Assembly: GCA_905178155.1 (NCBI GenBank)
Contig: CAJINV010000023.1
Coordinates: forward strand, 129,038 to 170,416
DNA length: 41,379 nucleotides
Direction of reading: 5' to 3'
Source: Amoebophrya sp. A120
Lineage: Eukaryota > Protista > Dinoflagellata
Shown: one piece after another, positions 8,250 through 40,753 of the stretch
Position numbering within the stretch: the stretch's first letter is position 1
How the letters are laid out: each line of letters opens with the position of its first letter
Translations under genes and position numbers: made by a program
The notes under the pieces: generated by a model
Database searches by the model: none
Told to the model about the DNA's origin: nothing
The model's input: only the letters and a program-made list of their open reading frames with translations

Positions 8250-8478
8250 TATGGGGGCGTCAGGATCGAAATCGACAAAACCGAAAAAAAATATATGGAA
8301 GTCCTTGGCGGGGACCCTCCGGGACCCCTTTCGATTCTGGCACACTCAAGCATACCGTCGCGGCTAGCTCGAAGGGGTCCGAGTGTGTCAGAATCAAAAA
8401 GCGAAAGCCCGGCACCCCTCCAGGGGGCCCCAGGATTTTTTATTCGGTTTTGCGAATTTCGATCCTGGCGCCCCCATA
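8250..8478. mobile_element. Introner K1 (family I), 229 bp
   Basis: TIR TATGGGGGCGTCAGGATCGAAAT / ATTTCGATCCTGGCGCCCCCATA; perfect TSD GACCT; contains the TAG at 8365. Confidence 0.93.
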
Positions 8479-8589
8479 GACCTCATTGACCAGACAACTC
8501 GCGCACTTTTCGAGCTCCATGAAATTTGCAAAGTGTTTCACATGGACATCAAGCCCGCAAATATTCTTTGGGAGGAGGTCTACACAACA

Positions 8590-8879
8590 TACGAAGTCAC
8601 AAAATGCAGTCAAGTCCCTAGGCCGCAGCGCAGCTGCCGCGAGAATGAGAAACACCCGAGAGCGAGTTTTGTGAGGGCTGTCGGGCGTGTGGTGTTCACA
8701 CACGTATGACCTGGCCGCAGGGGTGGCCAAAGGGAGGCACGGTTGCGCGAGTATCATAGAAGCTTCGCAGGGCATCCTCGGCGCCAGTGGTTTTGGTTCT
8801 GCCACCATTGGTCGTCTTCTTGGAGGATATGCATAAGCTAGCTGCGGCCTGGGTCCTGTTTGCATTTTTCCAATTGATA
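8590..8879. mobile_element. Introner K2 (degenerate singleton), 290 bp
   Basis: Degenerate TIR ...AAAATGCA...AGGCCGCAGC / GCTGCGGCCT...TGCATTTT...GATA; TSD not preserved; removing 295 nt joins catalytic-loop and DFG frames. Confidence 0.65.
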
Positions 8880-21303: not shown

Positions 21304-21851
21304 GAACGACAAAGAAAGTCCCAATTTGCACTGCACCAAGACGCATGTAAGCTACGAGCACGGACAACCCAAGAGTTACACTTGCATTGTATACTAGCGG
21401 CTGCGGCCAGGCCATTGTTTATTAATATTAACTTGCGCGGCAAATGTGAAAGTGTTCCGTTGTGGAATCGTGTACGGGTATCAGGACCAAGATCATGATT
21501 TGATCAAGATCTTCTGGAACTTCAAGGCTTTATCCGTAGTTTTCATTTTCGCTGTCTTGCATTGGCATTGCTCCGCTTAGGCACCACTTACGTATTACTT
21601 GAGAAAGCAATCCCTCTCAGTTAGACGACAAAACACAAGCACTGCGCCCGTTTTCTTTCGATTCCAAATTTTTTCGTGCCAGTTTTTGTCTTCATTTCAC
21701 AAGAACAATAAGGCTCCCCGGTCGTTCGCCGTCTCCGCACCGTTCAGGTTCTTCTCCTCGTTGCAGCAGTGGAGGAGGTGGTGGAGGCGAGCGTCCCTTC
21801 TGCTGATCGATGTACCTATGAAAAGAAACGAATTACGCTCCTTCGAAGAAG

Positions 21852-24800
21852 ATGCAGCTGAAAAGTTTTGCACTTCTGACCGCGGCCTACCTGGTGCCGA
21901 CCTGCGTTCTGTATCACACGTGCTCCTACCGCCGGGAGGAAGTGCAACTGCTGCGGGACGAGAAGCAAAACCCAAGGTTCCTGTTGTACCGAGTAATATC
22001 GTCCTCGGACGGCAAAAACAGTTTGTCTTTGTCACCAGCAGCTGCGCGTTCCGCCGCCACTAGGAAAAAAAGGAGACGCAAGGAGGATGTCAGCAAGGGC
22101 GTGCGAGTCCCTCAGGAGGAAGCGGCGGTCGCAAAAGGAGGCGACGCACCAGGCAGGACAACAACTGACGGCGAGGCAGTTTCGCATAGCCATAAACACG
22201 CAGTCGTCGAGCAAAAATCAGAACAACTAGACACGGAGTCAGCCCGCCGGCTTCTTCTCAAAGAAGCCGCCCGGGAGTTTTCTCAGCTGCGCGAAGTGTG
22301 GAGACCATTGGGCGAGGTACGAGAGTGCACAATCTGCCCTCGTTTGTACCCCTCAAATTAGAGGAGCATATCTACTAGCAAAACGAAGAAACAACTTGCA
22401 GAATGGAGCACTTGCAGGACAAATCCACGGTCGGACGACTTCAATGTGGTTTCCTTGGACATGATCCAGAACTTGTCATGCAAATACCGCCCAAGTGCCC
22501 AGACAGCATTTGGCGTTTTGCATGACAAAAACAGGGGAAGGAGCTTGTGTACTTCCATACGAAAGCCGCGAAGTGCCGAAAGCAGAGCTGGCAAAGACGG
22601 GGAGGCTATTATAAGTAAAAATGTCCCCGCCCCAGAGCTGTCTTCAGGCGGGTTTGCAATTAGTACAGGAACAGTTGTAATGCGCATTCCCATGAGCATG
22701 ATCGTGATGAGAAGCAAAAGCATAAGCATTTTCAGTTGTGTTTTGGAAAAGTTTGTAATTCTGTAAAAAGGATGAAGAGCCATTTTTGTGATCCGGCTGT
22801 GCTTGCTAAGCTGCACTGGAATCTCGAGAGAGGAACTTGTAATACGTAAACTCCCACCAAAACTTCTGCATTTTTTGTGTCGCAAAGTTACCAAGAAAAC
22901 TTTACTCTGCGCCGGGGATGGTTTTTCCCCAGGATAAGAGCTGGAACTTCTGCCCACCACGTCGCCCGCCCGGCTCGGGGCGATCCGTCAGCAAGCCGAA
23001 CAAGAAGACACGGTGCACTCCACCGCCTTATGGTGTTCTCAAACGTTACACTCTCACGTGTTACATGGATTTGTTACGCAAATATACCATCAAGATCCAC
23101 CCGATCAAGCTGCTTCGCATGACAAATTTGCGAAGGGCTAAACAGCCCCTAAATCTGTGTGGAATTTGTAATGCTAGATGCGCAACCTCCTCCCTTTAGC
23201 TTTTGCTTTTTGCGCATTACAAATTCGTGTAACAGTAGTTGAGAATGTAACAGTTGAGAATCCCATACGCCTACCTGGCGAAGTTTTCCAAGCGAGGACA
23301 GGCCTATCGCCGGCTCCTATACCACGAGGTAGTGGTCAAGCTGACCAAGCACCAGAGCACCGAGTTATGGGAGTCTCAAATCGGTTACCTTCTCAACTGT
23401 TACATGAATTTGTCATGCAAAATTGGCACCGACATCTAGTACATGATCAAGCTGCTTCGCATGACAAGTTCTCGATGCCGCGCTAGATAGAATTGCATTA
23501 ATCTGCTCCAAACCTGTAATGCAAAAGGCGCAACCTTCCCCCTTTCACTTATGCCATTCTTGCATTACAAATCCACCATGTAACAGCTGAGAATGTAACA
23601 CGACTTGAGAACTCGTCCATACGAGTATTCCTTAAATTGGAATCGCGTCTTCACGGCAGAAGACACCAAGCCAGAAAGCGGTTCACTGGACCAGCGCGAC
23701 AGAGATGCGGCACTTATCCAGTGCAAAAAAATCGTACTCGTATAGCGATCATGCATTACTTTAGGTAAATCAGCATTACAGATTGTATTCGTCATGCTGA
23801 AGAAATTTGTATATGCATTTGTACGAGGAGTGCGAGTGCGACACTTTTGCACTGGATAGCACTCCTGAGCCAGCAAATCTCGTCGTCCACTTCGAATATG
23901 CCCTGAAAATTAACCATCCCCATCCAATTTGTCATGCAAAGCACGCATAAAGTCCTTTGTTTGTCATGCAAAAAATCGATGGGGATGGGTATTAATTTTC
24001 ACGGAATATCGAACGCAGAAAGCGAAGAGCCTCCTCCTGCCCCCGCTTCCGCGGGCTCTATAAGTATATCCAAGAAAAAAACTGTGTTAGTGTGACTTTC
24101 TTGGAAGAATAGCATCACAAATTTGCTCTGCACGACAGAGAGAGCCTGTCATGCGCGCCTAGTACGTGAAAACACGTACGAAAAGAGCTTCTGATGCATG
24201 TCCAGCATGACAAGTGTAACTGTTTTGCACTTTCTGCATCACAGACTTACACTTACACAGTTTTTTTTTTGCATAAAGTAGGACGCCAGTGGAGTACTTT
24301 GTTCAGAGCAACGTCTTTGCGGTTGCGGATGAAAGCGTGCGGTATATCGCGAGGAGAAATCCCCCCTCTCCATATTGACAAGGTACGTTTTCGAAAATTT
24401 GCGTTGCTGATTTGTGACCGCAAATCGTCTCTGTGTTGCATGAAGGCAATTCCACAGACAGCCGCCGCATTCTACAGGCGGTTTGTCATGCTGTGGCTCC
24501 TACAGCGTAGAGGTCTGCCAAGCTAAGCGCATAGGCAAAAGTAAACCTGTCAGCTGAGGCTTGCTATGGGCCTGCAGTCCTCGCAAGCAAGACAACTTTG
24601 ATTCGTGCACACAAATCCAGCATCAGAAACTTCGTTTTGATACGGGGAGGGGGGGCTTTTCATTCTGATACAGTACATGTACGCGAACATGGCGATGGAC
24701 CTGCAGAAGCGGTGGTATGCACTGCAAAAGTATCGCACTCGTACTAATTGCAGTTATGCATATACAAATTTCTTTTTCAAGCCAAATGAGCATGACAAAT

Positions 24801-27800
24801 TCCATTTGTCATGCTGAGCTAATTTGTATTGCAATACTACGACTAGGACTACGATACTTTTGCAGTGCATAGGCGGAAGGCAAAGGTGAAAGTGAGCAAC
24901 CTGGACACGGCCCGGATGACGCTCTGTCCCTACTTGAAACTGTATCCTGTGCAAAAGTACCGCAAGTCGTCTTGCAGTCATGCATTACAAGTCTTTTTCT
25001 TAAGCTAAATCCGCATTACAAATTTTCTTTCTCATGCTGAGGCAATTTGTCATGCATTTACACGCGTGCGATACTTCTTTTGCAATTCATAAACTGGCTG
25101 CGGCATTGAGAAGTAGCGGAGGACGTAGTGGATCTGCAGGAGCATCACCGCCTTCACCCGCCGCCCCATCAGCAACGGCTCTTTCCTCCTCGGAGGACAT
25201 AAAGCCTCTTCCTCCTGCTGCTGTCGTGAGTGACTTTGAGGCCGAACGGGAAGAGATCGAGAGGCTGGCGCGAATCGTTTTGCAGGACGGGAAATCGCAA
25301 GGAGACGAGGCTTATGCGTCGCAAATATGTCTGGGTCTGGAAACATGTAAACTTCTGATGCGCATTTGAGAGCAGAAAAAAATCTGTCATGCATGGACCG
25401 CAAAAGTTGCTCATTTCTTGTCACCCAAAGAGGGAACTTGTCATGCGGATTACTTGGGCCTCGCCTAACCTGCTCAAAACCTGTGTTGCTAGGACTTGCA
25501 TGCTAGACCTTCCGTGTCATGCACAAACAGCATCGCACTCATTCAGACCCAGACATATTTGCATTTGATAAGGCTTCTAATATCAAGAGGACTTCATCTT
25601 CTGGAGGCTCCACGAACATCAAAATGCACGCCGCCTCTGCTCCACCCCCCTCGGTATCATCTGCAAAAGCATCGCGCCGCTCATAGAAGTACTTGACTGC
25701 ATGACAGAGCTGACTTCTTAGTAAATTTGGCACGACAAGTTCCACTTGTCGTGGTGCTGAGATGAAAATTTGTATTGCAATAATTTCTTCCGCTTCTATT
25801 TCTATACCGCGATCATGCTTTTGCAAGGCATAGTCGGTCTCGGTGAACAGGGCCAAATCTGCGGGCTGCCTCTGGGTCACGGTTTGTGGTCACTTTCGCT
25901 CCTTCCTGTTTAACGCGTGGAACCTGAAGTCTTTTTTCGAGCTAGCGAACACCAACATGCACTGCGTGTATTTCTCCGTCGTCGTGCGGTCCGACGCGGA
26001 AGCGCCCGGCAAGGTGTGGTGGGGCAATCGGGGCGCGGAAAAAATGAATCAACTGTTTGACGTGACCGTGTGGCTCCAGAGGATCCAGAACGCCGTATTA
26101 TGGATTGCAAATATGTCTGGGTCTGAAAGGTTGGAACTTGTAATGCTGTCTCTAGATTCCAAAAAAATCTGTATTACATGAGCAGCAAGAGGAGTCAGCT
26201 CTTGGCACGCAGAGAGGGCATTTCTCATGCATAATTAGCATCAAGAAGCTCTCAAAAAATCTGTGATGCTAGCACCAGCATCACAGACCTCACGGGTCAT
26301 GCAAAATGTGCATAACAAGACCCAGCTCTTCCACACCCAGACATTTTTGCAGTTGATACGTATTTTCCAACACCAATTTCTTCTACGTTGTCGTCGACCT
26401 CGAGAATCTATCCTGTGCAAAAGTATCGTACTCGTACGAATTGCAATTAAGCATGACAAGTCTTGTCCTGAAGGTAAAACAGCATGACAAATTCCATTTG
26501 TCGAGCTGAGGTAATTTGTAATGCAATTACTACTAGTACAATGCTTTTGCAATTCATAGAATCCGACCGTCCGGTCCCAAGACGGCGAACACGTTAGCTA
26601 CCTGGTGGCCAAGCGACTGCGAAAATTCCACGACACGTTTGCCCACGTCCTCGCGAAGATGACAGTGACAGGAGGAACCGGAACGCCTCGTGCTGGTAGA
26701 AGTGCCGAAGACAGCACCAAGACGCGTCAAAATCAAAATGAAGTGGATCCTGCTCATCATGATGATCTTCAAGAAGACCGCTCGTTTCCCGACCTGTACC
26801 AGCAAACGCACCTGATCACGAACGGCAAGAAGTCTTTCTACATTCTCGGAGAGAATGCGGATAGCCGACAGGAAAAATTACGGTTGAAAGTTTTCGACAC
26901 TGTGAAGCAAGAGTACGAAAGTTTCGTGAAACTCCAGAAGGGCGCCGACAACTACAACCACTACCTCCGTACCGGAGATGAAAATAGCCGGGTACTGCAC
27001 CGACGAAACGCGGACGGGAGCAGAACGGTTCGGAAGGATAGAAGCGTCGGTGGTGCTGGAGCGGGACAAAGTCAAAGTAGTAGTGGTGGAGACCACTATG
27101 ACGGCACAGTGGAAGATCTTGCTGGTGATCCGCTGCTGTTCCCAACGGACACACCGTTCGAGCACTCGCTGTATGCAATGCAAAAGCATCGTACTAGTAT
27201 GAATTGCATATACAAAATAGCCCAGCATTACAAATTCAATTTGTAATGCTCATTTACCTTGGAAAAAAGATTTGTAATGCATAAATGCAATTTTTTACTA
27301 CGAGTGCGATACTTTTGCACAGGATACGCTGGAACGATGGCTCCCCGGTCCGTTCCCGCCCGACTGGCCGGTCTCGGCGAGCAGAACCTTCGGCGACTCC
27401 TCAGTGGAGCACGTCTTCTTGCTATCGCAAGAAAAAAGTGTTACAGTTACACACTTGTTGGAGTTTCTGCAGCACAAAGTTGCTCGACATGGCCAAGAAA
27501 ACCTGTGATGCAGCCCACCAGACTATGTATAAGGCAAAACACGAATGAAATGAGGTTAGCAAGCATTTCCTGCATGACAGAGGTTGTCTGTCTTGCTTGT
27601 CTCCCATCAGAATGTGTAACTGTAACACTTTTTTCTCACGATACTTGCGCACGCGCCCCGATCTGGTCTACGACTTATGGCGTTCTCAACTGTTACATTC
27701 TCCACTGTTACATGTTGAATTCGTGATGCAAGAATGGGAAGAGTGAAAGGGGGAAGGTTGCACCTGTAGCATTACAAATTCCACCGCGCAGTTATTTTAG

Positions 27801-30800
27801 GCGCGGCTGATACCATTCGCAAACTTGTCATGCGGAGCAGCTTGATCGTGAGGATGATGGTGGCGCTTTTGCATGACAAATTCATGTAAATACGGTTGAG
27901 AGTGTAACGATTGAGAACCCCATACGACTCACAAATTGATTGGGGGCAGGTCTTCCTGGCGGCCCAGGTCACACGGCGCAAATGGTTCCTGCAGCGAGCC
28001 CAGCAACTGGAACAACTGCAGGACGAAGCAGAGGAGCGACACGCAGTTGCGGAGAGCAGCGGAAGTGGCACAGCTGCAAGTAGCACAGGTGCAACTTCGT
28101 CCCTCACCGCAGAAGCAGCTGCCGGCTTAAAGGCGGACTTAGAGTCCCCGCGGGCACTGCAAACCGGTCTGCGCGCTTTGCTGCGGAAGAGGCTGCAAAG
28201 CTTCCACCCAAATGTCCTCCTGGGCTGGGTGGCGCTGCATCAGGAGGCCGCGCTCACCATGAACGACCCCAATGAAATATTCTACTTCGGTACCGAGGCC
28301 CTGATGGACATCGCAAACAGCATCTGCCTCGACCACGGTGCATTCAACGGGCGGTGGCCTTTGGTCATAGTGCCGAACACGCTTCTCGGGATCATCCCTG
28401 GTCGCAAAATGTCCCTCGTCGCGCCGGGAGACGAAACTGCAACGGGCAGTATGTTGAGCAAGCACAAGCAGGGGAGCACAAGCACTTTCATCGCCGCTCC
28501 TACTTTATCTTCTTTGTCCAAAAAGACCGAAATAAGAACCTCTTCCGCGGTCGGGGGCACGACGTCGAGTGCGTCTGCGAATGGTGCGAAAATTCTGTCC
28601 GCGACAGAGCGAGAAGAAGCAGAGTTTTTTCAACGCCACAAGATCGAAGCGGACGAAAATATGCCCAAGATGGGGCTCGAGCTCATTGGCCTGTGGAATG
28701 CCGCCAAGGGGGCCATGGAAACGAAAATGCAGTCCGCGGAGGTATCAACTGCAAACACGTCTGGGTCTGGAAAGGTTGAACCTGTATTGCGTGTTTCGCA
28801 TATCTATGGAAATCTGTATTGCATAAGCAGCAAAAAATGATAAAGCAACACACTTGCGGCATGCAAAAGCACAATTTGTAATGCGTTCTGTGCATGAGAA
28901 AGCGTTTGAAAAAAAAATTGTAATGCTGCACTGCACTTAAAGGCACAGCCAATCATGACCACTCAGCATTTCAAGTTTCAGACCCAGACTGACATACTTG
29001 CACTTGATAGGAGGATGACTTTTACCAGAGTGACCTAGTCGCGAAGCTGTTGGAGTATGCTGTTCCATATCGTGTGCAAAAGTATCGTACTCGTATTGCA
29101 ATCATGCATTACAAATCATCTTGCCAAGGCAAATCAGCATTACAAATGTTATTTCTCATGCTCAGGAAATTTGTAAATGCATTTATACGAGTGCGATACT
29201 TTTGCAATGCATACTCCAGCTACTTCTTCGGACGGAACGAGGAAAGTGTCGGCATTGCAGAAACTCTTACAGGAGGAAAAACGACAGGCACGGTCACAGA
29301 ACCAAGCAACTAGTCCAGTACGCATTGCAAAAGTAGTTAGTAGTACCGGTGGAATTGTGTTCATGATTAGATAGGAGTTGTAGCTGCACTAGGATCGAAG
29401 CGAAGCTGGCATAAATACAATTCTTGGCAAGGAAAAAATGTGAATTTGCAATGCTGAGTGAAAAAGGCAAAGTATGAAGCCAGATCTTCCTCTGTATCTG
29501 AAATTTAAATGTGACCACACCTCAAGAACAATTCCACTTCAAACGCGATTCACTTTTGCACAGCATAACCATCAAACGTCGTGCACAGCGATGTAATGAA
29601 ATCGGGTCAGCTGCTCCTCACCGCGGTGCGGCGGTTTTTTCAGAAATTTTTCGCTATCTATTGTGAGGCAAAATCCCCAATCCCCATATCGAACAGGCGT
29701 GCTTTTCAAAATTTGTGATGCTGATTTGTGGCCACAGGCACAGCTCAAGTCTGTCTTGCAAGAGAACAAAGCCAGGGCTTCCGCTGCATTTCGCAGGCGA
29801 TTTGTAGTAAGGCTGCTATGCTACTAGGGCAGACGTCTGCCGTGCTAATTACCTACCCCAAGCCACCCCGACCCCTTTCCGGGCTTTGTATCTGTCTGCA
29901 GTCCTCCACCGCAAGACAAATCCGATCTGTGTACGCAAATCCTGCGTCACAGATTTCCATTTCGATATGGAGAGGGGCGATTTTTCCATTTAATACTATC
30001 GGCGCCGTCTACATGCTGCCCGGAACGCAGAGTGGGGTTCAAAACCGGGTGAGGCTATCCTGCGCGCGTTTGCTAAACGGCAACCACCAGTGCGCCGTTG
30101 GTTGCATGATCCCCGGCCAGGCGCAGGCGTCGGGCGCCAGCAACCTGAGTCACAACTTCGGGCTCTTCTACGACCTCATACAGACGACACAGCCGTCGTC
30201 TGGCTCCCGGGATCAACATCATGAGGAAGCGCATTACAATATCCTGAGTAAAAACGTACCCACAGCAGAGTCAAGATGGAAAATCTGCTAGACAAATCGG
30301 CCAACTTTGCTTGTTTCGCATGACAAATTTGGACGCGTAGTGTAGTGCTGTTTGAGCTAGTTAAGCAGCATTACAGATCTAGTCTCTCATGCTGATTGGA
30401 GCATGACAAATTTCAAAACACCCTTAGAAAATGCTTCTCATGGGGCTCCGCATGACAAACATTTTAAGCATGCAGATTTGCATGACAACTATGGTGTGGG
30501 TACGTTTTTACTCAGGATATACAAATACAAATTCGAGTTTCCGCTAGTTGACGTCACGATAGGGTCGACCATGTGGACGCGGCAGAAGGTATGACAGTGC
30601 ACAACTCCCCCTCCCCCTCATTTGTATTGCATCCACAGCAACACAAGCATCAGCAAGCATGCCGGTTCTGCATGACAGATTTGTATTGGAGTATAGTGCT
30701 ATTTGGGCTACCAGAACTTGTCATGCAAACAGTGCCAGGAGGCAATGGCTGAATTAGGTATTTTGCGTGACAAAGAGGGGGAGGGGGAGTTGTGCACTGT

Positions 30801-30859
30801 CATAGAAGGAGCCCATGGGCAACCCCGCGAACGGCAATGTGTTTCAGCTGGTGGGGTGA
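21852..30859 (+). CDS. Putative glycosyltransferase-like membrane-anchored/secreted protein, 1254 aa, 24 exons
   Basis: Exons (left TSD kept): 21852-22317, 22565-22606, 22942-23028, 23273-23365, 23627-23714, 23864-23896, 24014-24066, 24281-24344, 24676-24715, 24877-24942, 25097-25312, 25576-25654, 25838-26098, 26364-26408, 26564-27171, 27332-27422, 27649-27675, 27930-28742, 29015-29067, 29219-29318, 29573-29658, 30001-30239, 30525-30589, 30810-30859 = 3765 nt, open to TGA. N-terminal hydrophobic segment; motifs VTVCGHFRSF, FLRTRPDL, NDPNEIFYFG recall uncharacterised GT-A-like proteins (function is inference). Confidence 0.85.
22318..22559. mobile_element. Introner 1 (family J, degenerate), 242 bp
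   Basis: TACGAGAGTGCACAA...TTGTGTACTTCCATA; TSD CGAGG/CGAAA; interior resembles introner 23. Confidence 0.72.
22607..22936. mobile_element. Introner 2 (family B, degenerate), 330 bp
   Basis: TATTATAAGTAAAAATGTCCCCG...CGGGGATGGTTTTTCCCCAGGATA; TSD GAGGC/AGAGC. Confidence 0.7.
23029..23267. mobile_element. Introner 3 (family C), 239 bp
   Basis: TATGGTGTTCTCAA...TTGAGAATCCCATA; perfect TSD CGCCT. Confidence 0.93.
23366..23621. mobile_element. Introner 4 (family C), 256 bp
   Basis: TATGGGAGTCTCAA...TTGAGAACTCGTCCATA; perfect TSD CGAGT. Confidence 0.93.
23715..23858. mobile_element. Introner 5 (family D), 144 bp
   Basis: TATCCAGTGCAAAA...TTTTGCACTGGATA; perfect TSD GCACT. Confidence 0.94.
23897..24008. 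mobile_element. Introner 6 (family E), 112 bp
   Basis: TATGCCCTGAAAATTAA..CCATCCCCATC / GATGGGGATGG..TTAATTTTCACGGAATA; perfect TSD TCGAA. Confidence 0.93.
24067..24275. mobile_element. Introner 7 (family F-like), 209 bp
   Basis: TATCCAAGAAAAAAACTGTGT...ACACAGTTTTTTTTTTGCATA; perfect TSD AAGTA. Confidence 0.92.
24345..24670. mobile_element. Introner 8 (family G), 326 bp
   Basis: TATCGCGAGGAGAAATCCCCCCTC...GAGGGGGGGCTTTTCATTCTGATA; TSD CGGTA/CAGTA. Confidence 0.9.
24716..24871. mobile_element. Introner 9 (family D), 156 bp
   Basis: Perfect 20-bp TIR TATGCACTGCAAAAGTATCG; TSD GGTGG/GGCGG. Confidence 0.93.
24943..25091. mobile_element. Introner 10 (family D), 149 bp
   Basis: TATCCTGTGCAAAAG...TTTTGCAATTCATA; perfect TSD AACTG. 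Confidence 0.93.
25313..25570. mobile_element. Introner 11 (family A), 258 bp
   Basis: TATGCGTCGCAAATATGTCTGGGTCTG...CAGACCCAGACATATTTGCATTTGATA; perfect TSD AGGCT. Confidence 0.94.
25655..25832. mobile_element. Introner 12 (family D), 178 bp
   Basis: TATCATCTGCAAAAGCAT...ATGCTTTTGCAAGGCATA; TSD CTCGG/GTCGG. Confidence 0.9.
26099..26358. mobile_element. Introner 13 (family A), 260 bp
   Basis: TATGGATTGCAAATATGTCTGGGT...ACCCAGACATTTTTGCAGTTGATA; perfect TSD CGTAT. Confidence 0.94.
26409..26558. mobile_element. Introner 14 (family D), 150 bp
   Basis: TATCCTGTGCAAAAGTAT...ATGCTTTTGCAATTCATA; perfect TSD GAATC. Confidence 0.93.
27172..27326. mobile_element. Introner 15 (family D, inverted relative to 19), 155 bp
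   Basis: TATGCAATGCAAAAGCATCG...CGATACTTTTGCACAGGATA; perfect TSD CGCTG. Confidence 0.93.
27423..27643. mobile_element. Introner 16 (family F), 221 bp
   Basis: TATCGCAAGAAAAAAGTGTTACAGTTACAC...GTGTAACTGTAACACTTTTTTCTCACGATA; perfect TSD CTTGC. Confidence 0.95.
27676..27924. mobile_element. Introner 17 (family C, inverted relative to 3 and 4), 249 bp
   Basis: TATGGCGTTCTCAA...TTGAGAACCCCATA; perfect TSD CGACT. Confidence 0.94.
28743..29009. mobile_element. Introner 18 (family A), 267 bp
   Basis: TATCAACTGCAAACACGTCTGGGTCTG...CAGACCCAGAC..TTGCACTTGATA; perfect TSD GGAGG (GT-AG compatible). Confidence 0.93.
29068..29213. mobile_element. Introner 19 (family D), 146 bp
   Basis: TATCGTGTGCAAAAGTATCG...CGATACTTTTGCAATGCATA; TSD TTCCA/CTCCA. 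Confidence 0.92.
29319..29567. mobile_element. Introner 20 (family D-like, degenerate), 249 bp
   Basis: TACGCATTGCAAAAGT...ACTTTTGCACAGCATA; TSD TCCAG/ACCAT. Confidence 0.8.
29659..29995. mobile_element. Introner 21 (family G), 337 bp
   Basis: TATTGTGAGGCAAAATC...GATTTTTCCATTTAATA; perfect TSD CTATC. Confidence 0.92.
30240..30519. mobile_element. Introner 22 (family B), 280 bp
   Basis: Perfect TIR TATCCTGAGTAAAAACGTACCCACA; perfect TSD TACAA. Confidence 0.96.
30590..30804. mobile_element. Introner 23 (family J), 215 bp
   Basis: Perfect TIR TATGACAGTGCACAACTCCCCCTCCCCCTC; perfect TSD GAAGG (GT-AG compatible). Confidence 0.96.
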
Positions 30860-31845
30860 AGTTGCAGTTGCTCAGACGTGGTATTCGGAGCACTACTTCG
30901 GAATAATATGCAGGTTCTTCCGGGTAGTACATCCATGTGGTCGTCGTCGATTTCGTGCTGCGGAAATAAGTTCTTCGTCGATATGGACCACCAACATTTC
31001 CGTCGTTTATGTAAGTAGCAAGCTCTAGTAGATCTACGTTCTTCTTTTTCATCTTCTCTCCTTTGCGGACGCCAGCGCGGACGTGGAAGTTGTGGTATGC
31101 AAAATGCGCAACCGCATCCAGCTAACTCGTACGCAACTGTACTGCAATTATACTGAAGTGGTTGTAGTTCATGTGCTTATGCATACGCATCGTTCTTCAA
31201 TTTGAATCATGTTCTGCACACGGCGCACAACGTTTCCTGCATCCTGACTACATGATACGTCTATCTTCAAAACGAACGTGACAGCACTAAAGCGGCTGCG
31301 TGATATGAGGATAAAAAATAATGCCTGCTAGCTAATATGACGCTGGCTCTTGCGGTTCGAACCAGATGCGGACTGGTTGCTCAATTGCAATGTGTTTTCT
31401 TCATCTGTCTGTAATTAATACTACAAGAAAGGCTCGAGCTCGACACACGCGCGGAGCCGGAGTTGCTTTGCATAAAGACAAGAAAAGCATCGCAGCTCTC
31501 CTTGTTGATCACAATTGCAACTTTTTCCGGTCCACCTCCAAGCGACTTTTTTATTTTTTTCTTGCTTTCGAAGACGCAATGGATCACGATCACCAGGACA
31601 GCCTCGTCCTTGCAGCTGGATCTGCTCCTGCTTAGCAAACTTGATTAGCTTGCAGAATTATCGCAACCGTCATATTTATAAAGACGAAAAAACCTAGCGC
31701 TACTTCATCCTTCGTTTGCCATCTACTTTTTTGTTGGATATTTCCAGGGCGATGGCGCCACAAAAATTTTCATAAAGCACCAAGGCTAGAGCCGGCGACA
31801 AGAAGAGGCAGATAGTACTTTCTTCACCTTGCGCAACTTCACCTC

Positions 31846-34800
31846 ATGGAGGCGGGGAGCGGCAGTCCCGGCCAAGGCCTAATATGGGCCCCTCTGGACC
31901 AGAACGGCAAACATTTCATGCTCGAGGTTGTCACTTTCGTGCGCTTCGAGCTCGTTCCCTTCGTCTGCAGCGCGATCGTCGTGCTGATTTCAATTCTAGC
32001 ACTCTGCTGCACAACAACCGATGGTGGAGGAGATGGTACGACTAGAGGTTGCTCGTTTTTCATCTTTTCCTTGTGCAGGAGAAGCGCAAGAAGCGCAGCA
32101 CCGGTTCGCGGGGGCGAAAGCCCGCAGAAAAATACCTCGGCAACATCGTCCTCCTGCAGCGACTTTTTTCTAGCGACGATTTTCTCTTTCAAATCTTCGA
32201 GAGTCTACGAAGAGGTACCTGACGCAGTGGCGCTCGTCGGAAAGCCTGCGGGTGATGTTGATCATGCTGCACATCATCAAGAGCCGCAGGCAAGCGGAGC
32301 ACGACTTGTAGACCACAGCAAGAACCGGCGGAACCGTGAGGACATCGAACTGACACATCAGAGCGAAATAGCGAAGGAACAGGACGACGACGACGACGTC
32401 GATAGTGGCGGGCGGAGTCGAAGCGGGGACGTCGAGGCAGATGAAGTAGCACGACTGCAGCGAGAGCGACCCCAGCAGCACAACTACTACTGCACGCAAA
32501 CTACTTCTATCAAGCGACGAAAGCTTCTCAAAGTGACGCTTACCCTGTCCGTACTCGCATTTGCCTGCTACGTCGTCTTCTCTTCCACCGAGCTCATGTT
32601 CCTCCTATGCATGGCAAATTATATGTCTGGGTCTGGAAGAGGACAAGTTTGTCATGCACATTTTCCCTGAGTCGTGATGTCTGTGATGTATGCCTTAGCA
32701 TCTTCACATATTTTTTGAGTGCTTGTCGATGCGCATCCCGCATGACAAGTGTTCTCTGCGCGTAGCCAATACAATATATTGACTCCCCTTGCTGCCCATG
32801 CAATACAGGTTTTTCTAGCATCCCAATGCAGCATCACAAGTTCTTGCACTCTTCCAGACATCCAGGGATTTTTGCAGATGATACCTCCCGCGGGTGTACA
32901 AGGTTCGCTTCGGGGACGCGGAAACTTTTCCCACCGTGCCGGAGCGCTGGCGGGAGTGTACGGCTATCAAATGTAAAAATGTCTGGGTCTGGAAGATTGC
33001 AACTTGTGACGCTGTCTCTGCATTCTAAAAAAATCTGTATTGCATGATAGATCAGCTAGCAAGAGGGGTCCAGCTCCAGTTTGTGCTACACGGAAAGGGC
33101 ATTTCTCATGCGGGATAGCATCAGAAAGCCCACTAAAAATCTGTGATGCCAGGTTATGCATTACAGGCGTCATGGGTCATGTAAAATCTGCATGACAAGT
33201 CTGGCATTCTTCCAGACCCAGACACTTTTGCATTTGATAACGGCAGTGGAAGAGCAAGAACGCACCAGCAGGAGCACAGGAGGAATTTTGGATAGTGGAA
33301 GCAGGCGACACAGTCCCAGCAGCACAAAGAAATGGCGGTGGGATCCCGAGACCGTCGTGGGCCCGCTCGGGAAGCTTATGGATAGTAAAAATGTCTGGGT
33401 CTCCTGGAAGATTAGCACTTGTAATGCCAGCTTCCCATGCCTAGAGCTAGAAAATCTGTATTGCATAATCAACAAAAGTCGCAGCCGCTTTTGTCATGCA
33501 AAAACGCAGTTTCTCATGCGGATTGCCCATGGGAAAGCGATTTGGGAAGGTGTCATGCCGGACTGCATTCGGAAGTGTTTTCATCATGCACATTTTAGCA
33601 TCACAAGTTTCCAGACCCAGACATTTTTGCATTTGATAAAGTTGAAGAAGCCACCATTGTGGATCTTCGTAAACGACAGCAACTACGGCATCGGAAAGAA
33701 GATATGCAAGCAAACGGCGCCCGGTGTGAACCTGATAGTCAAGAAGTGTCTCGAAAGCTTCGAGCGGCACCTCCGGCCGCATTTCGAATTTGTGTACCTG
33801 AACGAGAAAAACATCACCAAGTTTCTCGATTTCGGAGACGGCCCGGGACTGCTGCCCCGGTGGCACGAGAGCCTCCCCGAGGGAGCGCAATACGCGGACT
33901 TTGCCTCGCTCTCGTTGCAGTACCGGTACGGGGGTGCCTACGTGGACTGGGACGTGCTGCTACTGAACAATATCAACCCGTATTGGGATCTGTTAGAGCA
34001 CTTCGAAACAGTGTTGATCGGCCCCACCAGCGTGCGTGGGTACGGCACAGCCTACGACGAGCACGGGCTGATCCTTTCCCTATTGTGAGGAAAAATCCCC
34101 CCTCCCCACGTTACCAAAGCGGGACACTTTTGAAAATTTGTAATGCTGATTCGTGACCGCAATCGTCTCTGTATTGCAAGAAGGCAAATCAACAAACCCT
34201 GCCGCGTTCTCCCAGCAATTTGCAGTGCTGTATGGCCTACAGAGGACGCGCCTGCCTCGCTAGGTGCCTACACCGAAACGCCCTTACTCAGGTTCTGTAT
34301 CTACCTGCAGTCCTCCATTGCATGACAAAGCAGATCTGTGTACACAAATTCCGCATCACAGATTTCCATTTCGATGTGGGGAGGGGGGATTTTTCCTTTT
34401 GATATTCCCGCCCCCGGAGTCTGTGGGCGGAGTCCAGCTTGCGGCTGATATCAACTGGAAAAGTGTCTGGGTCTGGAAACTTGTAATGCTTGGCTGGGAA
34501 TAGTGAATGCTGATGCTCTGTAATGCACAACCTTGCATGAGAAAGGTCTGCGCCGCTTAGTGTTGCGCTTCACGCATGACGAACTGCGTTTTTGCATGAC
34601 AGGCAAGAGGCCCTTTTCCTGCTCATGCATCACAGATTTGAGAGTCATGCCAGAGAAGCATGACAAACGTGCACTCTTCCAGACCCTGACCCAGACTACA
34701 TTTTTGCAATGCATAGCTGATGCTCCAATCCTACGCGGACTATGTGAAGATATCAAATGTAAAAATGTCTGGGTCTGGAAACTTGTACTGCTAAAAGTGA

Positions 34801-36737
34801 ATGATAGACGCACTGCAATACGCAGCTATGCATGACAAATTTTTTGGCTGCTATGTCTTACGTATTCCGCATGGCAGACTGCGTTTTTGCATGACAGGCA
34901 AGAGAACCTTTTCGTGCCTATGCAACACAGATTCTCGAGTCATGCCAGACAAGCATGGCAAACTTGCATTCTTCCAGACCCAGACACTTTTACAATCCAT
35001 AGAAGAGCCACCCCGACAATCTGCGCAGGTTCTCGAGGCAGGAAGTCATGGACAGCTTGGCAACGCCAACGTCGAGGGGAGCATCGGTGGCAGCTTCGTC
35101 CTCATCTGCGACGAGTGCTAGTAGTAAGATCCCTAGCGGTAGTACTAGTACGATGGAGAAAAAACACGATGCTGATGATCCCACCAAGGTTTTGAAGCAA
35201 CTCGGGCAACATTTCACGCTGTCCAAATACTGGGAAGTCACGCACAACGGTGTTGTTGCCAGACAAAACCACTGCAGCTTCGTCCGACTGTTATCGCAAG
35301 AAAAAAGTGTTACAGTTACACATTGTGTTGCAGAACACGCATGAGAGGCAACCTCTGTCATGCACGAAATGCTTTCAAACCTTATTTCACACGTGTTTTC
35401 CCGTAGGATTTCTGCAATGCAAGTTTTCTCTCTCATGCAGAGAAATTTGTGTTGCTGGATTGACAACAAATGTGTAACTGTAACACTTTTTTCGTGGGAT
35501 AACTGTACATGGGAAGTCAGTACACACCGGGAGGTTTCGCGAAGAACCTGTGCGTACCCACTGCAAAAATGTCTGGGTCTGTAAGAATGCCAGACTTGTC
35601 AACATGCAGGTTTTCCATGACCCATGAGGTCTGGTATGTAGGACAGAGCATGGCAGATTCTGTGAAATGAGTTCTACCATGCCTATCCTGCATGAAGAGA
35701 AGCTGCCTCTTGGTTAGGTCAAAAGTGGGCAGCTTTCGGCATCATGCGTCGCAGATTTTTACAGATTCAGATTTAGCATGACAACTTGCTTTGTTCCAGA
35801 CCCAGACACTTTTGCATTTGATAGTGCGAAATCGACGTCGCGACCGACTTCGACCTGGTTCGCCGAATCTATGCTAGCGCGATGCTGAATGACCTGCGAC
35901 TAGTGCATTTGTCGTATGCGAAGTTTTATCAACTGCAAACATGTCTGGGTCTGGAAACTTGTCAACATGCAAGTCTGTCAGTAATGAGTGCACTTTAATA
36001 GTTGGCCAATCATGACAAGTTTTTGAGCTCCTGCCTGTTGCGTACTTGTTACGCTTACGCATGGGGGGATCCGCATTTTCGTGACAGACAAAAGTATCTC
36101 ACTCTCCCCGTGCCTAAGCGTCAACACATAGTTAAGAGTCATGCCAGACACAGACTAGCAAGACAGATTTCGCACTCTTCCGGACCCAGACATATTTGCA
36201 ACGCATAGCTTCGCGTTTTATGACGAGCCGAAACGGAACCGGTGCGCCATCCCCAGTCTGCAACAATGTCCACTGGTCGATATGTTGCGGGCGTTTTCCC
36301 GAAACGAAATTGTGGACGCAAAGAGGATCTTCGATACGATGTTGAGAAGCAGTAGTACAAAAAAGGAGCTTTCGTCTCCAGATACATCAACAACTGGCGC
36401 TGATGTCTCAAGGACCACTGGAGCTGCTATTTCAACATCTGCTGTTGCTGACGAAGTGGTCCAGATTGAGCTTGCGGGCGAAGTAGACGAGAAGCGGTGG
36501 CTCTTCGACGGCAAAGACAACGCCGGCGTCCGAACCTGGCTGGTGCAGTACAACGGGCAGGCACGACCTGGAAGTGCTGCTGTATCAGAAGGGACAGCAG
36601 CAACATCAAGCGGAAATATCAAGTTTTCCCGAGAGGCCAAGCACGCAACTAGCGATATCAGCGCCGGCATCCTAGCCCCGAGTGCAGCGCAAATCGCCAA
36701 GAAAAAACTGCAAGAAGAAATTTGCCAGTTGAAGTAA
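31846..36737 (+). CDS. GT32-like / capsular-polysaccharide-synthesis-type DxD glycosyltransferase, membrane-anchored, 809 aa, 10 exons
   Basis: Exons 31846-32605, 32889-32964, 33245-33376, 33644-34080, 34410-34448, 34721-34750, 35007-35291, 35507-35554, 35829-35926, 36213-36737 = 2430 nt, open. Signature KKCLESF...VYLNEKNI...ADFASLSLQYRYGGAYVDWD; two N-terminal hydrophobic segments. Confidence 0.88.
32606..32883. mobile_element. Introner 24 (family A), 278 bp
   Basis: TATGCATGGCAAAT..GTCTGGAAGA / TCTTCCAGAC..TTTTGCAGATGATA; perfect TSD CCTCC. Confidence 0.92.
32965..33239. mobile_element. Introner 25 (family A), 275 bp
   Basis: TATCAAATGTAAAAATGTCTGGGTCTGGAAG...CTTCCAGACCCAGACACTTTTGCATTTGATA; perfect TSD ACGGC. 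Confidence 0.95.
33377..33638. mobile_element. Introner 26 (family A), 262 bp
   Basis: TATGGATAGTAAAAATGTCTGGGTC...GACCCAGACATTTTTGCATTTGATA; TSD AAGCT/AAGTT; in frame and stop-free. Confidence 0.92.
34081..34404. mobile_element. Introner 27 (family G), 324 bp
   Basis: TATTGTGAGGAAAAATCCCCCCTCCCCAC...GTGGGGAGGGGGGATTTTTCCTTTTGATA; perfect TSD TTCCC. Confidence 0.95.
34449..34715. mobile_element. Introner 28 (family A), 267 bp
   Basis: TATCAACTGGAAAAGTGTCTGGGTC...TTTTTGCAATGCATA; perfect TSD GCTGA. Confidence 0.93.
34751..35001. mobile_element. Introner 29 (family A), 251 bp
   Basis: TATCAAATGTAAAAATGTCTGGGTCTGGAA...TTCCAGACCCAGACACTTTTACAATCCATA; perfect TSD GAAGA; interior similar to adjacent introner 28. 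Confidence 0.94.
35292..35501. mobile_element. Introner 30 (family F, inverted relative to 16), 210 bp
   Basis: TATCGCAAGAAAAAAGTGTTACAGTTACAC...GTGTAACTGTAACACTTTTTTCGTGGGATA; perfect TSD ACTGT. Confidence 0.95.
35555..35823. mobile_element. Introner 31 (family A), 269 bp
   Basis: TACCCACTGCAAAAATGTCTGGGTCTG...CAGACCCAGACACTTTTGCATTTGATA; perfect TSD GTGCG. Confidence 0.93.
35927..36207. mobile_element. Introner 32 (family A), 281 bp
   Basis: TATCAACTGCAAACATGTCTGGGTC...GACCCAGACATATTTGCAACGCATA; TSD decayed (AGTTT/GCTTC) but removing 286 nt restores frame. Confidence 0.88.
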
Positions 36738-37205
36738 GGCGAAAACCGAGTGAGCAAATAGAGGACCAAAAACTAGAAGATTACCACCATGCAATAGAAG
36801 GATGACATTCATATTCAATTTTTGGAACAGACGAGAAGCAGTCTCGTCGGTCTCTGTGCTGCCCCATGTTCATTATTGGACACTTCTGCTCAGTATTACC
36901 ATGATCCGCTTTTGCAAGCGTCTCATCGTTTCCGGTGCGGTGTGGGCAAATGAGAGCAAGATCGGCATGCGGAAGTTTTGTTTATACGGATGCAATTCTC
37001 TTTGTCCTCATGCAGTTTTTATGTACACACAGGTACTTCTATCGGCATGGCTTTTTTTTGGAGGGATTCTTAAGTGCTATCCTTTGTTGCGGTGGCTCCA
37101 TATCTATTGATGGGAACTACAGCTGCGTAGCATGTCACAAAACTAGCAAGTACTTAATTAATACTACAGTGACAAGATGAAGGCCCATGCAAACCGTGGG
37201 AGGTC

Positions 37206-37519
37206 ATGAGGTCCTCGTGGACGACGTCTCGAGTGCCGTTTTCCCTGTTATCACAGGAAAAAACTGCTTCACTGTGATGATCTTGCAAGATCTGCGTCAC
37301 AAGTTTGTTACACATGAGCCAGAAAATTTACCATGCGCGCTTCCAAAGGGAAAACACCGTTAAAAAGTCAAGGACAAGGTCTTGCAGGTGTGGCAAGACA
37401 AATTAGTTCTGTGCTTCATTCTATGCACCACAAGTCCACAGTGAAACAGTTTTTTTTTGCGATACCTGTTCTGCTTTCTCTACTACGTCGTGGCGGGGTC
37501 GACGCACTTACTTTTCTGA
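37206..37519 (+). pseudogene. Truncated duplicate of the transporter's first exon, interrupted by introner 33
   Basis: Reads MRSSWTTSRVPFSL|FCFLYYVVAGSTHLLF* versus MRSFSWTTSGAVPFSLFCFLYYVVAGSTHLLL at 38171. Confidence 0.85.
37249..37464. mobile_element. Introner 33 (family H), 216 bp
   Basis: TATCACAGGAAAAAACTG...CAGTTTTTTTTTGCGATA; perfect TSD CCTGT; empty homologous site at 38215-38219. Confidence 0.96.
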
Positions 37520-38170
37520 TCCCGGTTTACGCACCTGGCTGCTGCGCTGATCCCCGTTAGCGCGACGGAGTCACGTTCCCGCCTCCTGTCGTGTTGTATC
37601 CTAAGAGAAGATGAATTTCATTCATCGTCGTCGTATTTAGTAAATAAGACGACAATCATGAAGGTGTTCTACCTCTTGGGAGTTGCGTTGGCACCGCTGA
37701 GGGCAACTGTCCCCCCCCACCCCAGACGGGGACTTCGGGGCTCGAGATCGAGGAAAAGCCTACTTTAACTGCGAACACTGTCGTTTCTGGGGCGCAAGAT
37801 GCTCCTGCTGATTCATCACCTTTGCGCGCGGCGGACGCCGCAACGCCGAGCGCGGCAGCCGTGGCGTCTTCTTCAGGCACGGCGTCTTCAGTCTTCTTCT
37901 CGTGTTTCAATTGAGACACGGCATGTTCGTGACAGGACGAAGAACCCGAGAGATTTACAGATCGAAAAAATGTTCTCTAGATCTTTTGTTTTTCGAAGAA
38001 GATGAAGATTAAGGTGTAGTTTTTTTTCCTTTTGAGAAGTTCCATCTGCTTTCACTAGTCCGCCTCGAGAAAAGCCCAGTTGTTGCTAGAATCTTGACAG
38101 ACCGCGTCGCACTCCTCGAGATCCGAGTTGCTCGAATTTTGACAGCCCCCCGTGCAAACCTTGGGAGGTC

Positions 38171-40753
38171 ATGAGGTCCTTCTCGTGGACGACGTCTGGA
38201 GCAGTGCCGTTTTCCCTGTTCTGCTTTCTCTATTACGTCGTTGCGGGGTCGACGCACTTACTTCTCACAAAGGCGACGGAAAACAAGAATGCGAGCGTAT
38301 GGACGTGCCAGGATCGAAATCGTCAAAGTTGAAATAGTTTGCCATGCATAAAACCGACACCAGTGGGAAGCCCACTTTTCAAGCGGCGCATGACAAATTT
38401 GCCGACCACCGGAATCCAATTTGTCATGCTGTTTGGGCACAGAAGACTGTTTTTGTCGTGCTAGTTTAGTAGCTCTATTTCAAACCCTAAACAGGCTTGC
38501 AATCGGCCTCACTTGCCATCCCGGCAAGACAGGCACTTCATGCCTTGCATTTTATGCATGACAAAGCATTTCAACTTTGTCGATTTCAAACCTGACGCTT
38601 CCATAGAGCGGGCGGCTGGAGTACGATACCACTGTGGTCTATCCCACGAAAAAACTGTTTCACTGTGACGATTTTGCAAGATCTGCATCACAAGTTTGTT
38701 ACACATGACAAAGAAAACTTGGCATGCGTGCTTCCTAAGGGAAAACACAGCTAAAAATCCAATGTCTTGCATGTGTAGCAAGACAAACACACTTGCGTTC
38801 CGTTCTATGCATCACAAGTTCACAGTGAAACAGTTTTTTCTTGCGATATGGTCGTCTCGCTGGTGGAGGTTTTCAAAGCCATTTTTGCGATTAATATGGT
38901 TCTGCTGTTATCCTGAGTAAAAACGTACCCACACCAGAGTCAGGATGGGGATTTTGCAACACAAACCTAGGAGCTTTGTGAGTCACGCATGACAAGTTGC
39001 ACTATGCAGTGTAGTGCAGGTTAGCAAGTGCAGCCGCATCACAGATTCATCTGCTCATCCTGTTCACAGCATCACAAATTCCAAAACACGACTGGAAATG
39101 GCTCTCATGGGGATGCGCGTCGCAAGTCTTCCTGTCTTTGCAAATCTGCATTACAACTCTGGTGTGGGTACGTTTTTACTCAGGATTGCTGTTCGGTAAA
39201 AAAAACAACGGAACGACAAAGTCCGAGATAGCGGAGCTGTGCAAGCTTGGAGAGCCTCGGTATGCCCTCCCCGGGCTCTTTTACGCGGTGCAAAACAACT
39301 GCATCATCCTTGCGGTGCCGCTCCTACACCCCCACGTATTCGGGCTTTTCAACAATTTGAAGATCGTGTCCGCCGCTGTGTTTTCGTCCCTCTTTTTGCG
39401 GAAGCGCTTTCGGGTACGGGAAAAAGTCGGCCTCCTGCTGCTCATCCTTAGCTTATCAAATGTAAAAATGTCTGGGTCTGGAAAAGTGGAGCTTGTAATG
39501 CGTGTCATGCATTCCTGGAAAATCTGTGTCCCATGAGCAGCAAAAGACAGGCTTTCTTTCTTGTCATGCAAAAACGCATTTTGTAATGCGTGCTAGGCAT
39601 CAGCAGGCCTCTCAAAAACTTGTCATGCTTGGCTGCCATTGGAGGCGTTTCAATCATGCGAAATTCAGCACCACAAGTTTCCAGACCCAGACATTTTTAC
39701 ATTTGATATAGCTGCGTCGTCAGCAAGTGGGAGATGGCCACTTCGGCCGTGCGTCAATTGATGATCCGGCCGAACAATGCTGCTCCGGACGAGCGGCGGC
39801 AATCGGCAACAATGAAGAACGCTAAAGGAGAAGCTGAAGACCAGCGGTTTCTCCTAGGTCTGTCCCTGACGCTGTTTGCAACCAGTGTTTCCGGTCTCGC
39901 GGGGGTCATCAACGAACACGTGCTGATATCCAGTGCAAAAGTACCGTGCAGCTCGAATGAATTGCAAATCTAAATCTTTGTGCATTGCAAATCCAGTTGT
40001 GCATTGCAAATCCAAATCTTTTTCTCATACGTAAGTCGAAGTCCGTGTCCAGACTACAAATTTTCATTGCGCAAATTTGCGATAAGCTTTCTGCTAATAC
40101 GATACTTTTGCACAGGATAGCTGAAGGTAGGGGGCAAAGTGGGTCATAGTTTCTGGATAAAAAACTACTACACCTACCAGTATGGGATTCTCTTCAATCT
40201 GTGTGGCAACGCCGTCAGTTATCTTTTGCAGAATTACCATCCCGGAATGACGAGTGGTGTGTTAAATACGTCAAATGCTAGTTCTTTTTCTAATACCACA
40301 AAAAATTCTTCTGATCTTTTTCTCAAGAAAACTAGCCCTTCTCTACTTCTCACGGGCTTCACCCCCCTGGTTTGGGCCCTGGTTTTTGTGTGGGTTCTCC
40401 TCGGCGTATCCGTGTCGTTGGTCTTCAAGTATCTGGACAACACGGCAAAATCCTTCGGAAATCCGCTGATAGTGTTTGTCACCTCGATTTTTTCGCATTT
40501 TCTCTTCGCGGACACAAACTTAGATGTGTACTTTTTCCAAGCTCTGGCATTGTATTTTTGCTCCGTCGCGGTGTATTCAGGAACTACTGCACCGTTCTTT
40601 CAGGTCACAGGTCTTGCTCCTCCTGGAGGTAGTTTTAGTTCTTCTAGTTCTGTTGCTACATCATCAACAAGGAACTTTATTTCGCTCGTGACAGAAAGTA
40701 GAACAGATACAGATGCAGATACCAGTACCATAAGGGAGAAAAAAAATGCCTGA
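38171..40753 (+). CDS. Nucleotide-sugar transporter (SLC35A, CMP-sialic acid/UDP-galactose transporter-like), 437 aa, 6 exons
   Basis: Exons 38171-38297, 38611-38639, 38854-38908, 39193-39453, 39714-39926, 40125-40753 = 1314 nt. Family motifs YDTTVVVSLVEVFK, YALPGLFYAVQNN, NLKIVSAAVFS, SGLAGVINEHVLK, SFWIKN, VFKYLDNTAKSF; multiple TM segments. Confidence 0.93.
38298..38605. mobile_element. Introner 34 (family I), 308 bp
   Basis: TATGGACGTGCCAGGATCGAAATCGTCAAAGTTGAAAT...ATTTCAACTTTGTCGATTTCAAACCTGACGCTTCCATA; perfect TSD GAGCG. Confidence 0.94.
38640..38848. mobile_element. Introner 35 (family H), 209 bp
   Basis: TATCCCACGAAAAAACTGTTTCACTGTG...CACAGTGAAACAGTTTTTTCTTGCGATA; perfect TSD TGGTC. 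Confidence 0.95.
38909..39187. mobile_element. Introner 36 (family B), 279 bp
   Basis: TATCCTGAGTAAAAACGTACCCACACCAGAGT...ACTCTGGTGTGGGTACGTTTTTACTCAGGATT (last base T); perfect TSD GCTGT. Confidence 0.95.
39454..39708. mobile_element. Introner 37 (family A), 255 bp
   Basis: Perfect 31-bp TIR TATCAAATGTAAAAATGTCTGGGTCTGGAAA; perfect TSD TAGCT. Confidence 0.96.
39927..40119. mobile_element. Introner 38 (family D), 193 bp
   Basis: TATCCAGTGCAAAAGTA...TACTTTTGCACAGGATA; perfect TSD GCTGA; internal ATTGCAAATC x3. Confidence 0.94.

Follow-up and report, generated by a model that had tools for sequence, protein, structure and literature searches.

The window analysed here, a 41,379-nucleotide stretch of the Amoebophrya sp. 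A120 genome (contig CAJINV010000023.1), carries three plus-strand genes interrupted by 37 transposon-like TAT...ATA elements (23 in gene A, nine in gene B and five in gene C). These are published non-canonical introners of A120, and the class and two of the gene models were already known. The new part is a fixed cut register. Wherever the junction can be read (nine cases), the transcript retains bases 1-4 of the left copy of the flanking 5-bp target site duplication (TSD) and base 5 of the right one; the intron therefore starts one base ahead of the terminal inverted repeat (TIR) and runs four bases beyond it, N/UA(U)...AUA-NNNN/. We found no such rule in the papers covered (PMC7789003, PMC12130899, PMC11282704, PMC9860276, PMC12787238 and PMC12005148), a coverage that ends short of the figures of Farhat 2021 and of Roy 2023; the repeats that Farhat places 'four nucleotides upstream', figures S19-S23 or Roy 2023 may anticipate part of it. 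The polarity of the conserved bases suggests that a modified U2-type spliceosome, no longer dependent on GT-AG, probably removes the elements.

The elements were collected by searching for 5-bp direct repeats flanking TAT...ATA inverted ends, and relaxed searches brought the in-gene set to 37. Between 21.8 and 40.8 kb, 27 candidates combined exact TAT..ATA ends with an exact 5-bp repeat, compared with 1-7 in 20 shuffles of the same region, where 0-1 cases reached a TIR score of at least 14. An earlier sequence-only reading of this DNA had described 37 elements of 112-337 bp in three genes, TSDs without a consensus, and a rule (delete the element and one TSD copy) giving frames of 1254, 809 and 437 amino acids, with 30 of the 37 deletions shifting the frame. 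The set, the length range, the rule and the frame shifts were reproduced (length plus 5 is not a multiple of three in 30/37), and no TSD position carries more than 0.12 bit across the 37 elements. Two of its generalizations were too broad: 28 of the 37 duplications are exact and the other nine agree in 2-4 of their five bases, and most elements have TAT...ATA ends with TIRs, whereas five depart from this by a TAC or ATT end or by weak TIRs. The host genes are as follows.

Gene A, 21852..30859, plus strand: 24 exons, 1254 amino acids, no Pfam family.
Gene B, 31846..36737, plus strand: 10 exons, 809 amino acids, DXD glycosyltransferase domain PF04488.
Gene C, 38170..40753, plus strand: 6 exons, 437 amino acids from the ATG at 38170, nucleotide-sugar transporter PF04142.

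When the extra length removed from gene A was varied from +0 to +8, only element+5 gave the 1254-residue frame; all other values led to a stop by residue 301. Residues 310-1254 are identical to the annotated A120 protein GSA120T00020546001 (P0001), in which no Pfam family was found. This annotation begins 309 codons after the RNA-supported frame, and contigs join the first eight introns (21852-24675). The gene B model equals GSA120T00020547001 (P0002) over 809/809 residues, and the PF04142 profile in gene C (86-147, 159-200 and 206-315) is spread over three successive exons. Exon queries matched only Amoebophrya sp. A120 proteins, at 100% identity, and a look-up of 10 exon open reading frames (ORFs) returned no further annotated A120 protein.

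Removal from transcripts was assessed with runs X1-X4, which are assembled contigs from one sample, presumed to be RNA; they report the main transcript form only and show zero depth over several element bins. Within 21700-26090, 11 of 11 contig joints skip exactly element+5, and a loose end is present for the twelfth element. Another 22 elements are covered by summed skips in three X1 contigs (420, 640, 1524, 1632 and 1269), and element+5 removal has contig support, singly or as sums, for 34 of the 37 elements. At element 33377 (B3) the support lies on the acceptor side, while for 32606 and 32965 (B1 and B2) removal is backed by the annotated protein alone. The contigs thus agree with the proposal of the sequence-only reading that removal is non-GT-AG and occurs at the TSD junction. 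The raw RNA runs X9 and X10 yielded 9 and 4 partial reads, from repeats only, and are uninformative on the genes.

The same reading had named DNA-level excision alongside a spliceosome and a nuclease/ligase, but the three are not equally open. Precise, transposase-like excision in expressing cells would suit the transposon anatomy, and gene C exon 1 does offer an empty site next to a filled copy. A stray partial duplicate of this exon at about 37190-37515, differing from the gene (38140-38265) by two 3-base deletions, holds a further element at 37249-37464 between two CCTGT copies, where gene C has a single CCTGT near 38215-38219. This empty/filled pair shows that insertion duplicates 5 bp; it may have arisen by later insertion or by precise loss. 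X5 contigs, in contrast, retain elements with both flanks (records 5, 11 and 12), and no empty-site joint occurs among the 15 X5 joints listed. Moreover, a cut that keeps four left bases and one right base is polar with transcription, and end conservation, described below, tracks the ORF strand rather than the element. DNA-level excision is disfavoured by these contigs and by the strand-linked conservation, and we consider it highly improbable.

To describe the junctions we use c, the number of left-repeat bases kept in the transcript. In the rows below, coordinates give the element without its TSD, and a joint skip equals element+5.

A1, 22318..22559, plus: TAC..ATA, TSD CGAGG/CGAAA; intron 22317-22563 (GT..AA), c=4 exactly; basis joint 22316->22564 (both=0), X2 loose end agrees.
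A2, 22607..22936, plus: TSD GAGGC/AGAGC, weak hairpin, CT..AG at c=4; loose end 22940, c at least 3.
A3, 23029..23267, plus: TSD CGCCT; joint skip 244.
A4, 23366..23621, plus: TSD CGAGT; joint skip 261.
A5, 23715..23858, plus: TSD GCACT; joint skip 149.
A6, 23897..24008, plus: TSD TCGAA; joint skip 117.
A7, 24067..24275, plus: TSD AAGTA; joint skip 214.
A8, 24345..24670, plus: TSD CGGTA/CAGTA; c at least 2; joint 24341->24673.
A9, 24716..24871, plus: TSD GGTGG/GGCGG; c at least 3; joint 24713->24875; W322 in P0001.
A10, 24943..25091, plus: TSD AACTG; joint skip 154.
A11, 25313..25570, plus: TSD AGGCT; joint skip 263.
A12, 25655..25832, plus: TSD CTCGG/GTCGG; c at least 1; joint 25650->25834.
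A13, 26099..26358, plus: TSD CGTAT; contig sum 420 with A14.
A14, 26409..26558, plus: TSD GAATC; contig sum 420 with A13.
A15, 27172..27326, plus: TSD CGCTG; contig sum 640 (386+254) for A15-A17.
A16, 27423..27643, plus: TSD CTTGC; contig sum 640.
A17, 27676..27924, plus: TSD CGACT; contig sum 640; orientation opposite to its relatives A3 and A4.
A18, 28743..29009, plus: TSD GGAGG; GT-AG at c=4; contig sum 1524 for A18-A23.
A19, 29068..29213, plus: TSD TTCCA/CTCCA; c at least 1 from annotated protein P0001.
A20, 29319..29567, plus: TAC..ATA, TSD TCCAG/ACCAT; c 1-4 from annotated protein P0001; GT at c=4.
A21, 29659..29995, plus: TSD CTATC; contig sum 1524.
A22, 30240..30519, plus: TSD TACAA; contig sum 1524.
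A23, 30590..30804, plus: TSD GAAGG; GT-AG at c=4; contig sum 1524.
B1, 32606..32883, plus: TSD CCTCC; annotated protein as sole basis.
B2, 32965..33239, plus: TSD ACGGC; annotated protein as sole basis.
B3, 33377..33638, plus: TSD AAGCT/AAGTT; c at least 4; contig piece starts at 33643.
B4, 34081..34404, plus: TSD TTCCC; contig sum 1632 for B4-B9.
B5, 34449..34715, plus: TSD GCTGA; contig sum 1632.
B6, 34751..35001, plus: TSD GAAGA; contig sum 1632.
B7, 35292..35501, plus: TSD ACTGT; contig sum 1632.
B8, 35555..35823, plus: TAC..ATA, TSD GTGCG; GT at c=4; contig sum 1632.
B9, 35927..36207, plus: TSD AGTTT/GCTTC; c 2-4; contig piece starts at 36210; K634 in P0002.
C1, 38298..38605, plus: TSD GAGCG; contig sum 1269 (equal to the model) for C1-C5.
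C2, 38640..38848, plus: TSD TGGTC; contig sum 1269.
C3, 38909..39187, plus: TAT..ATT, TSD GCTGT; contig sum 1269.
C4, 39454..39708, plus: TSD TAGCT; contig sum 1269.
C5, 39927..40119, plus: TSD GCTGA; contig sum 1269.
38th element, 37249..37464, plus: TSD CCTGT; inside the stray copy of gene C exon 1.
39th element, 8250..8478, plus: TSD GACCT; removal opens a kinase-like frame to HMDIKPANIL.

All nine imperfect TSDs are compatible with c=4, seven from contigs and two from the annotated protein P0001. The tightest limits come from 22318 (c=4 exactly), 33377 (c at least 4), and 35927 and 29319 (c at most 4). With random cuts, the probability of any common register is 0.026 (0.049 for the seven contig cases) and that of c=4 is 0.002. 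An in-frame stop test on 50 imperfect TSDs of other loci (described below) gave three informative cases. Two rule out c=5 and c=1; one more, which had seemed to rule out c=4, was discarded because it rested on a wrong frame. At c=4, the termini of 35 of the 37 elements are non-GT-AG; GT/GC-AG termini occur in 2/37 here and 7/177 in the other loci, and both fully canonical cases (28742-29013 and 30589-30808) fall at c=4.

An ordinary spliceosome acting at nearby GT-AG sites, with the non-canonical reading as an alignment artefact, would have suitable sites at hand, since an in-frame GT-AG pair lies within about 12 nucleotides of the ends in 22/37 elements. Yet all 12 readable junctions lie at the TSD although nine of these have such a pair nearby, element 22318 is fixed as GT..AA, and the annotated proteins agree with the TSD-junction model, without a single difference at c=3-4. 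The sequence-only reading had allowed GT-AG only at GGAGG and GAAGG. Both stand, but 24716 and 35927 also permit GT-AG introns of the same length at c=1 (24712-24872 and 35923-36208), and the contigs use neither. Use of nearby GT-AG sites, which that reading had named as evidence against itself, was not seen at the 12 readable junctions. For the dominant transcript form it is already contradicted; as the contigs show the main form, minor use is possible. As a general explanation, we regard it as extremely improbable.

Base conservation was examined with 145 further loci (L001-L145), obtained by a pattern scan of a second public assembly (JACKZZ01 contigs). Of the 337 elements in these loci, 247 have an exact repeat of 5 bp, other repeat lengths are few, and copies are up to 96% alike. 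The idea that JACKZZ01 represents an independent lineage was rejected: L048 matches the A120 protein P0123 at 95-100%, so that the assembly comes from A120 itself or from something very closely related, and what it contributes is further copies. A detector blind to the terminal triplets returned 267 elements; 180 were oriented by reading frame, and after three off-by-one cases had been dropped the remaining 177 were pooled with the 37 window elements to give 214, the 87 weakly oriented elements being kept apart. This detector needs good TIRs and missed 3/37 window elements as well as a TATGGG-type family. The statistics that follow rest on few deviant ends and several tests, in a sample leaning to one TIR family.

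At c=4, the donor side in the window has U at +2 and A at +3 in 37/37 elements and U at +4 in 34/37, while the 3' side has A at -7 and U at -6 in 37/37; in the other loci, U at +2 and a purine at +3 are found in 177/177. Deviations fall unequally on the two ends. At TIR positions 1-2 the 214 elements show none at the donor and six at the mirror end (p 0.03), or 0 against 11 when the weakly oriented elements are added (p 0.001), whereas at TIR position 3 the donor deviates nine times and the 3' end twice (Fisher p 0.002). Where +4 is changed, G occupies +1 in 7/9 elements compared with 63/205 of the others (p 0.006), and a GU donor seems to be of help to the removal machinery. Conservation at the ends goes with the ORF strand and not with the orientation of the element. 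Such polarity is not predicted by a symmetric transposase or stem constraint, and points to a modified U2 spliceosome. Among unlike-ended elements of L001-L145, a TATC donor with TATG at the other end occurs 45 times and the reverse 21 times (p 0.004), a skew that may stem from a bias in how the largest family is oriented (32 vs 14).

The strand-linked polarity is also the reason for favouring a modified U2 spliceosome over a hairpin-measuring nuclease/ligase. In the mechanism that we propose, the hairpin and shared internal motifs would stand in for U1/U2AF in intron definition, and U+2 and A+3 would be recognised at the U6 active site in the manner of GUA donors, with G+1 now optional. Spliceosome structures place the role of U+2 and A+3 at the U6 centre. 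The acceptor would be set by distance, four nucleotides past the 3' TIR and seven past the near-invariant A, without AG, and this A at -7, present in 212/214 oriented elements within a weak U2-pairing context, is a candidate branch point. It is tempting to speculate that near mirror-image ends allow splicing in either orientation and thereby make insertion into exons harmless. A spliceosome freed of G+1 and of the AG acceptor, with a measured 3' site, would be without described precedent in the non-canonical intron literature covered.

Several observations weigh against this spliceosomal reading. The surroundings of A-7 match U2 poorly (U at -9 in 14/37), A-7 itself is predicted to be paired in the stem, and two oriented elements with GTA 3' ends, L001 and L056, have G there instead. 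AG at -2/-1 is not enriched (16/177) and the +1 and -1 bases are not associated (p 0.83), so that the usual docking for the second step must have been lost. GT and non-GT elements are alike in TIR strength (p 0.27), and among the 177 elements, collected with a detector that needs good TIRs, weak TIRs did not go with GT or AG termini. The internal motif GCATNAC has no strand preference (311 vs 342), and 23/177 elements lack it on the sense strand. Conservation of TAT/ATA is also expected under transposase selection, the published intron classes cited below may be shaped by the aligner, and a machine that still handles 35% canonical introns would not be expected to ignore the GT-AG options at 24716 and 35927. 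Finally, the RNA-like evidence consists of contigs from a single sample whose RNA status is presumed. As a separate observation, both elements with G at -7 have G at +1.

Some of these points would suit a non-spliceosomal endonuclease and ligase that reads the TIR hairpin and its UA end, cuts one nucleotide before and four after the stem and joins the exons, a route of the sort proposed for euglenid nonconventional introns. Its appeal lies in the predicted folding, with 35/37 elements at z < -2 and most ends paired (12 rough shuffles per element), in the disregard of canonical GT-AG alternatives, in the lack of an acceptor or branch consensus, and in reports that U1 small nuclear RNA was not detected in A120; moreover, the Euglena authors, in the part of their paper covered, favour distinct factors and report circles (PMC12501133). 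It does not readily account for the compensation of +4 changes by G+1, and the conserved +2U and +3A are the very bases read by the spliceosome. Two elements whose ends are predicted to pair poorly are still removed in register: 22607 (A2), whose ends lack predicted pairing (z -0.72) and which has AG at -2/-1, and 24943 (A10), with weak pairing (z -2.2). In addition, introns appear to start at the TIR in strain A25 and one base before it in A120, with U+2 in both, subject to the aligner caveat: in the portion of Farhat 2021 covered (PMC7789003), all nine leading A120 non-canonical classes of Table S4 start NT, the listed A25 classes start TT, and A25 TIRs begin TTA. We therefore regard a nuclease and ligase as possible but doubtful, and equally tentative is its corollary, a second, non-spliceosomal cut-and-join route for mRNA that would act on a UA-capped hairpin with a fixed 1+4 stagger in tens of thousands of introns. 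The stem alone, which the sequence-only reading had bringing the two TSD copies together, fails to explain the single register, the +2U/+3A polarity or the removal of 22607. The modified U2-type spliceosome is our preferred reading, and its parts are largely reported in A120, with 83/89 spliceosome proteins together with U2, U4, U5 and U6.

The 39 window elements include six families with 30/39 members, in both orientations. Inside unrelated families the motif GCAT(G/T/C)ACA recurs on both strands (52 and 49 occurrences vs about 2 by shuffle) and is a candidate binding site for a shared mobiliser or splicing helper. We rejected GCAT(G/T/C)AC as a branch point or splice signal: it is 30-fold enriched, but the strands are alike and many elements are without it. 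An Rfam search of the window gave no match.

Outside the three genes, the first 21 kb of the window are GC-richer and nearly introner-free, with (CTTTTG)n at the start followed by short palindromic and tandem repeat arrays (1-100, 165-425, 1000-2500, 3200-3430 and 4900-5000). A kinase-like gene lies at 8020-9559, where removal of 8250-8478 restores the frame to HMDIKPANIL. A second interruption near 8578-8911, without TAT/ATA ends and with several GT-AG readings, may be an ordinary intron or the mark of a broken gene. At 18706-21303, an element-free, uninterrupted frame of 865 codons resembles a kinase weakly (PF00069, E 0.002).

Since 2021 it has been asked how A120 takes out some 30,000 such introns, and one obstacle is that the duplications mask the position of the cut. 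With one register for all, it is fixed where a branch or cut ends must lie, which makes tests of mechanism exact and makes a uniform re-cut of the A120 annotation possible, gene A being annotated 309 amino acids short. If removal is spliceosomal, the catalytic core can run without an acceptor dinucleotide; if it is not, a second mRNA splicing route would exist outside Euglenozoa.

The sequence-only reading had likened the elements to Amoebophrya introners with an unsettled removal mechanism; this was right, except that they belong to the published A120 class itself and lie partly in two genes already annotated. The sources in this comparison are cited for the portions covered. Farhat 2021 (PMC7789003) describes A120 introners with 3-5 nucleotide border repeats and RNA-supported removal, states the mechanism as open and calls the intron border variable or unknown. 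Its introners and the window elements share inverted repeats of TAT + 7 nt + at least three A, direct repeats of 5 bp, a length of about 240 nucleotides and repeated families, and the window elements agree with the published class in host, inverted repeat, direct repeat, families and non-GT-AG removal. In PMC12130899, the A120 dataset rows covered (21 of 58) list mixed splice sites and TSD calls of 2-5, and the A120 families are classed as TIR DNA, superfamily unknown. Miniature inverted-repeat transposable elements and other non-autonomous TIR DNA transposons are likewise short, non-coding and dispersed in both orientations, with TIRs and a fixed TSD made on insertion; the window elements differ in lying in exons and being removed from RNA. 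For other strains (AT5, ex Karlodinium), use of GT-AG is reported.

Euglenid nonconventional introns (PMC12501133) resemble the window elements in their end-to-end stem, junction-blurring direct repeats and lack of GT-AG. They differ in carrying CAG/CTG at +3/-8, where the window elements end in TAT/ATA, in being released as circles, in the proposed use of separate factors, and in belonging to an unrelated lineage. In Entamoeba invadens (bioRxiv 2022.06.08.495308), the 3' splice site also has a short, constant spacing to a conserved A (BP -8), but GT-AG and an AYURAY motif are kept, and the window elements have neither. In Fritillaria borealis (PMC13326754, PMC11282704), transposon-derived introns with TIRs and TSDs are removed by an adapted U2 spliceosome. 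These keep fixed AG-AC or AG-AT dinucleotides in the presence of U1, whereas in the window elements the +1 base and the last four bases are free.

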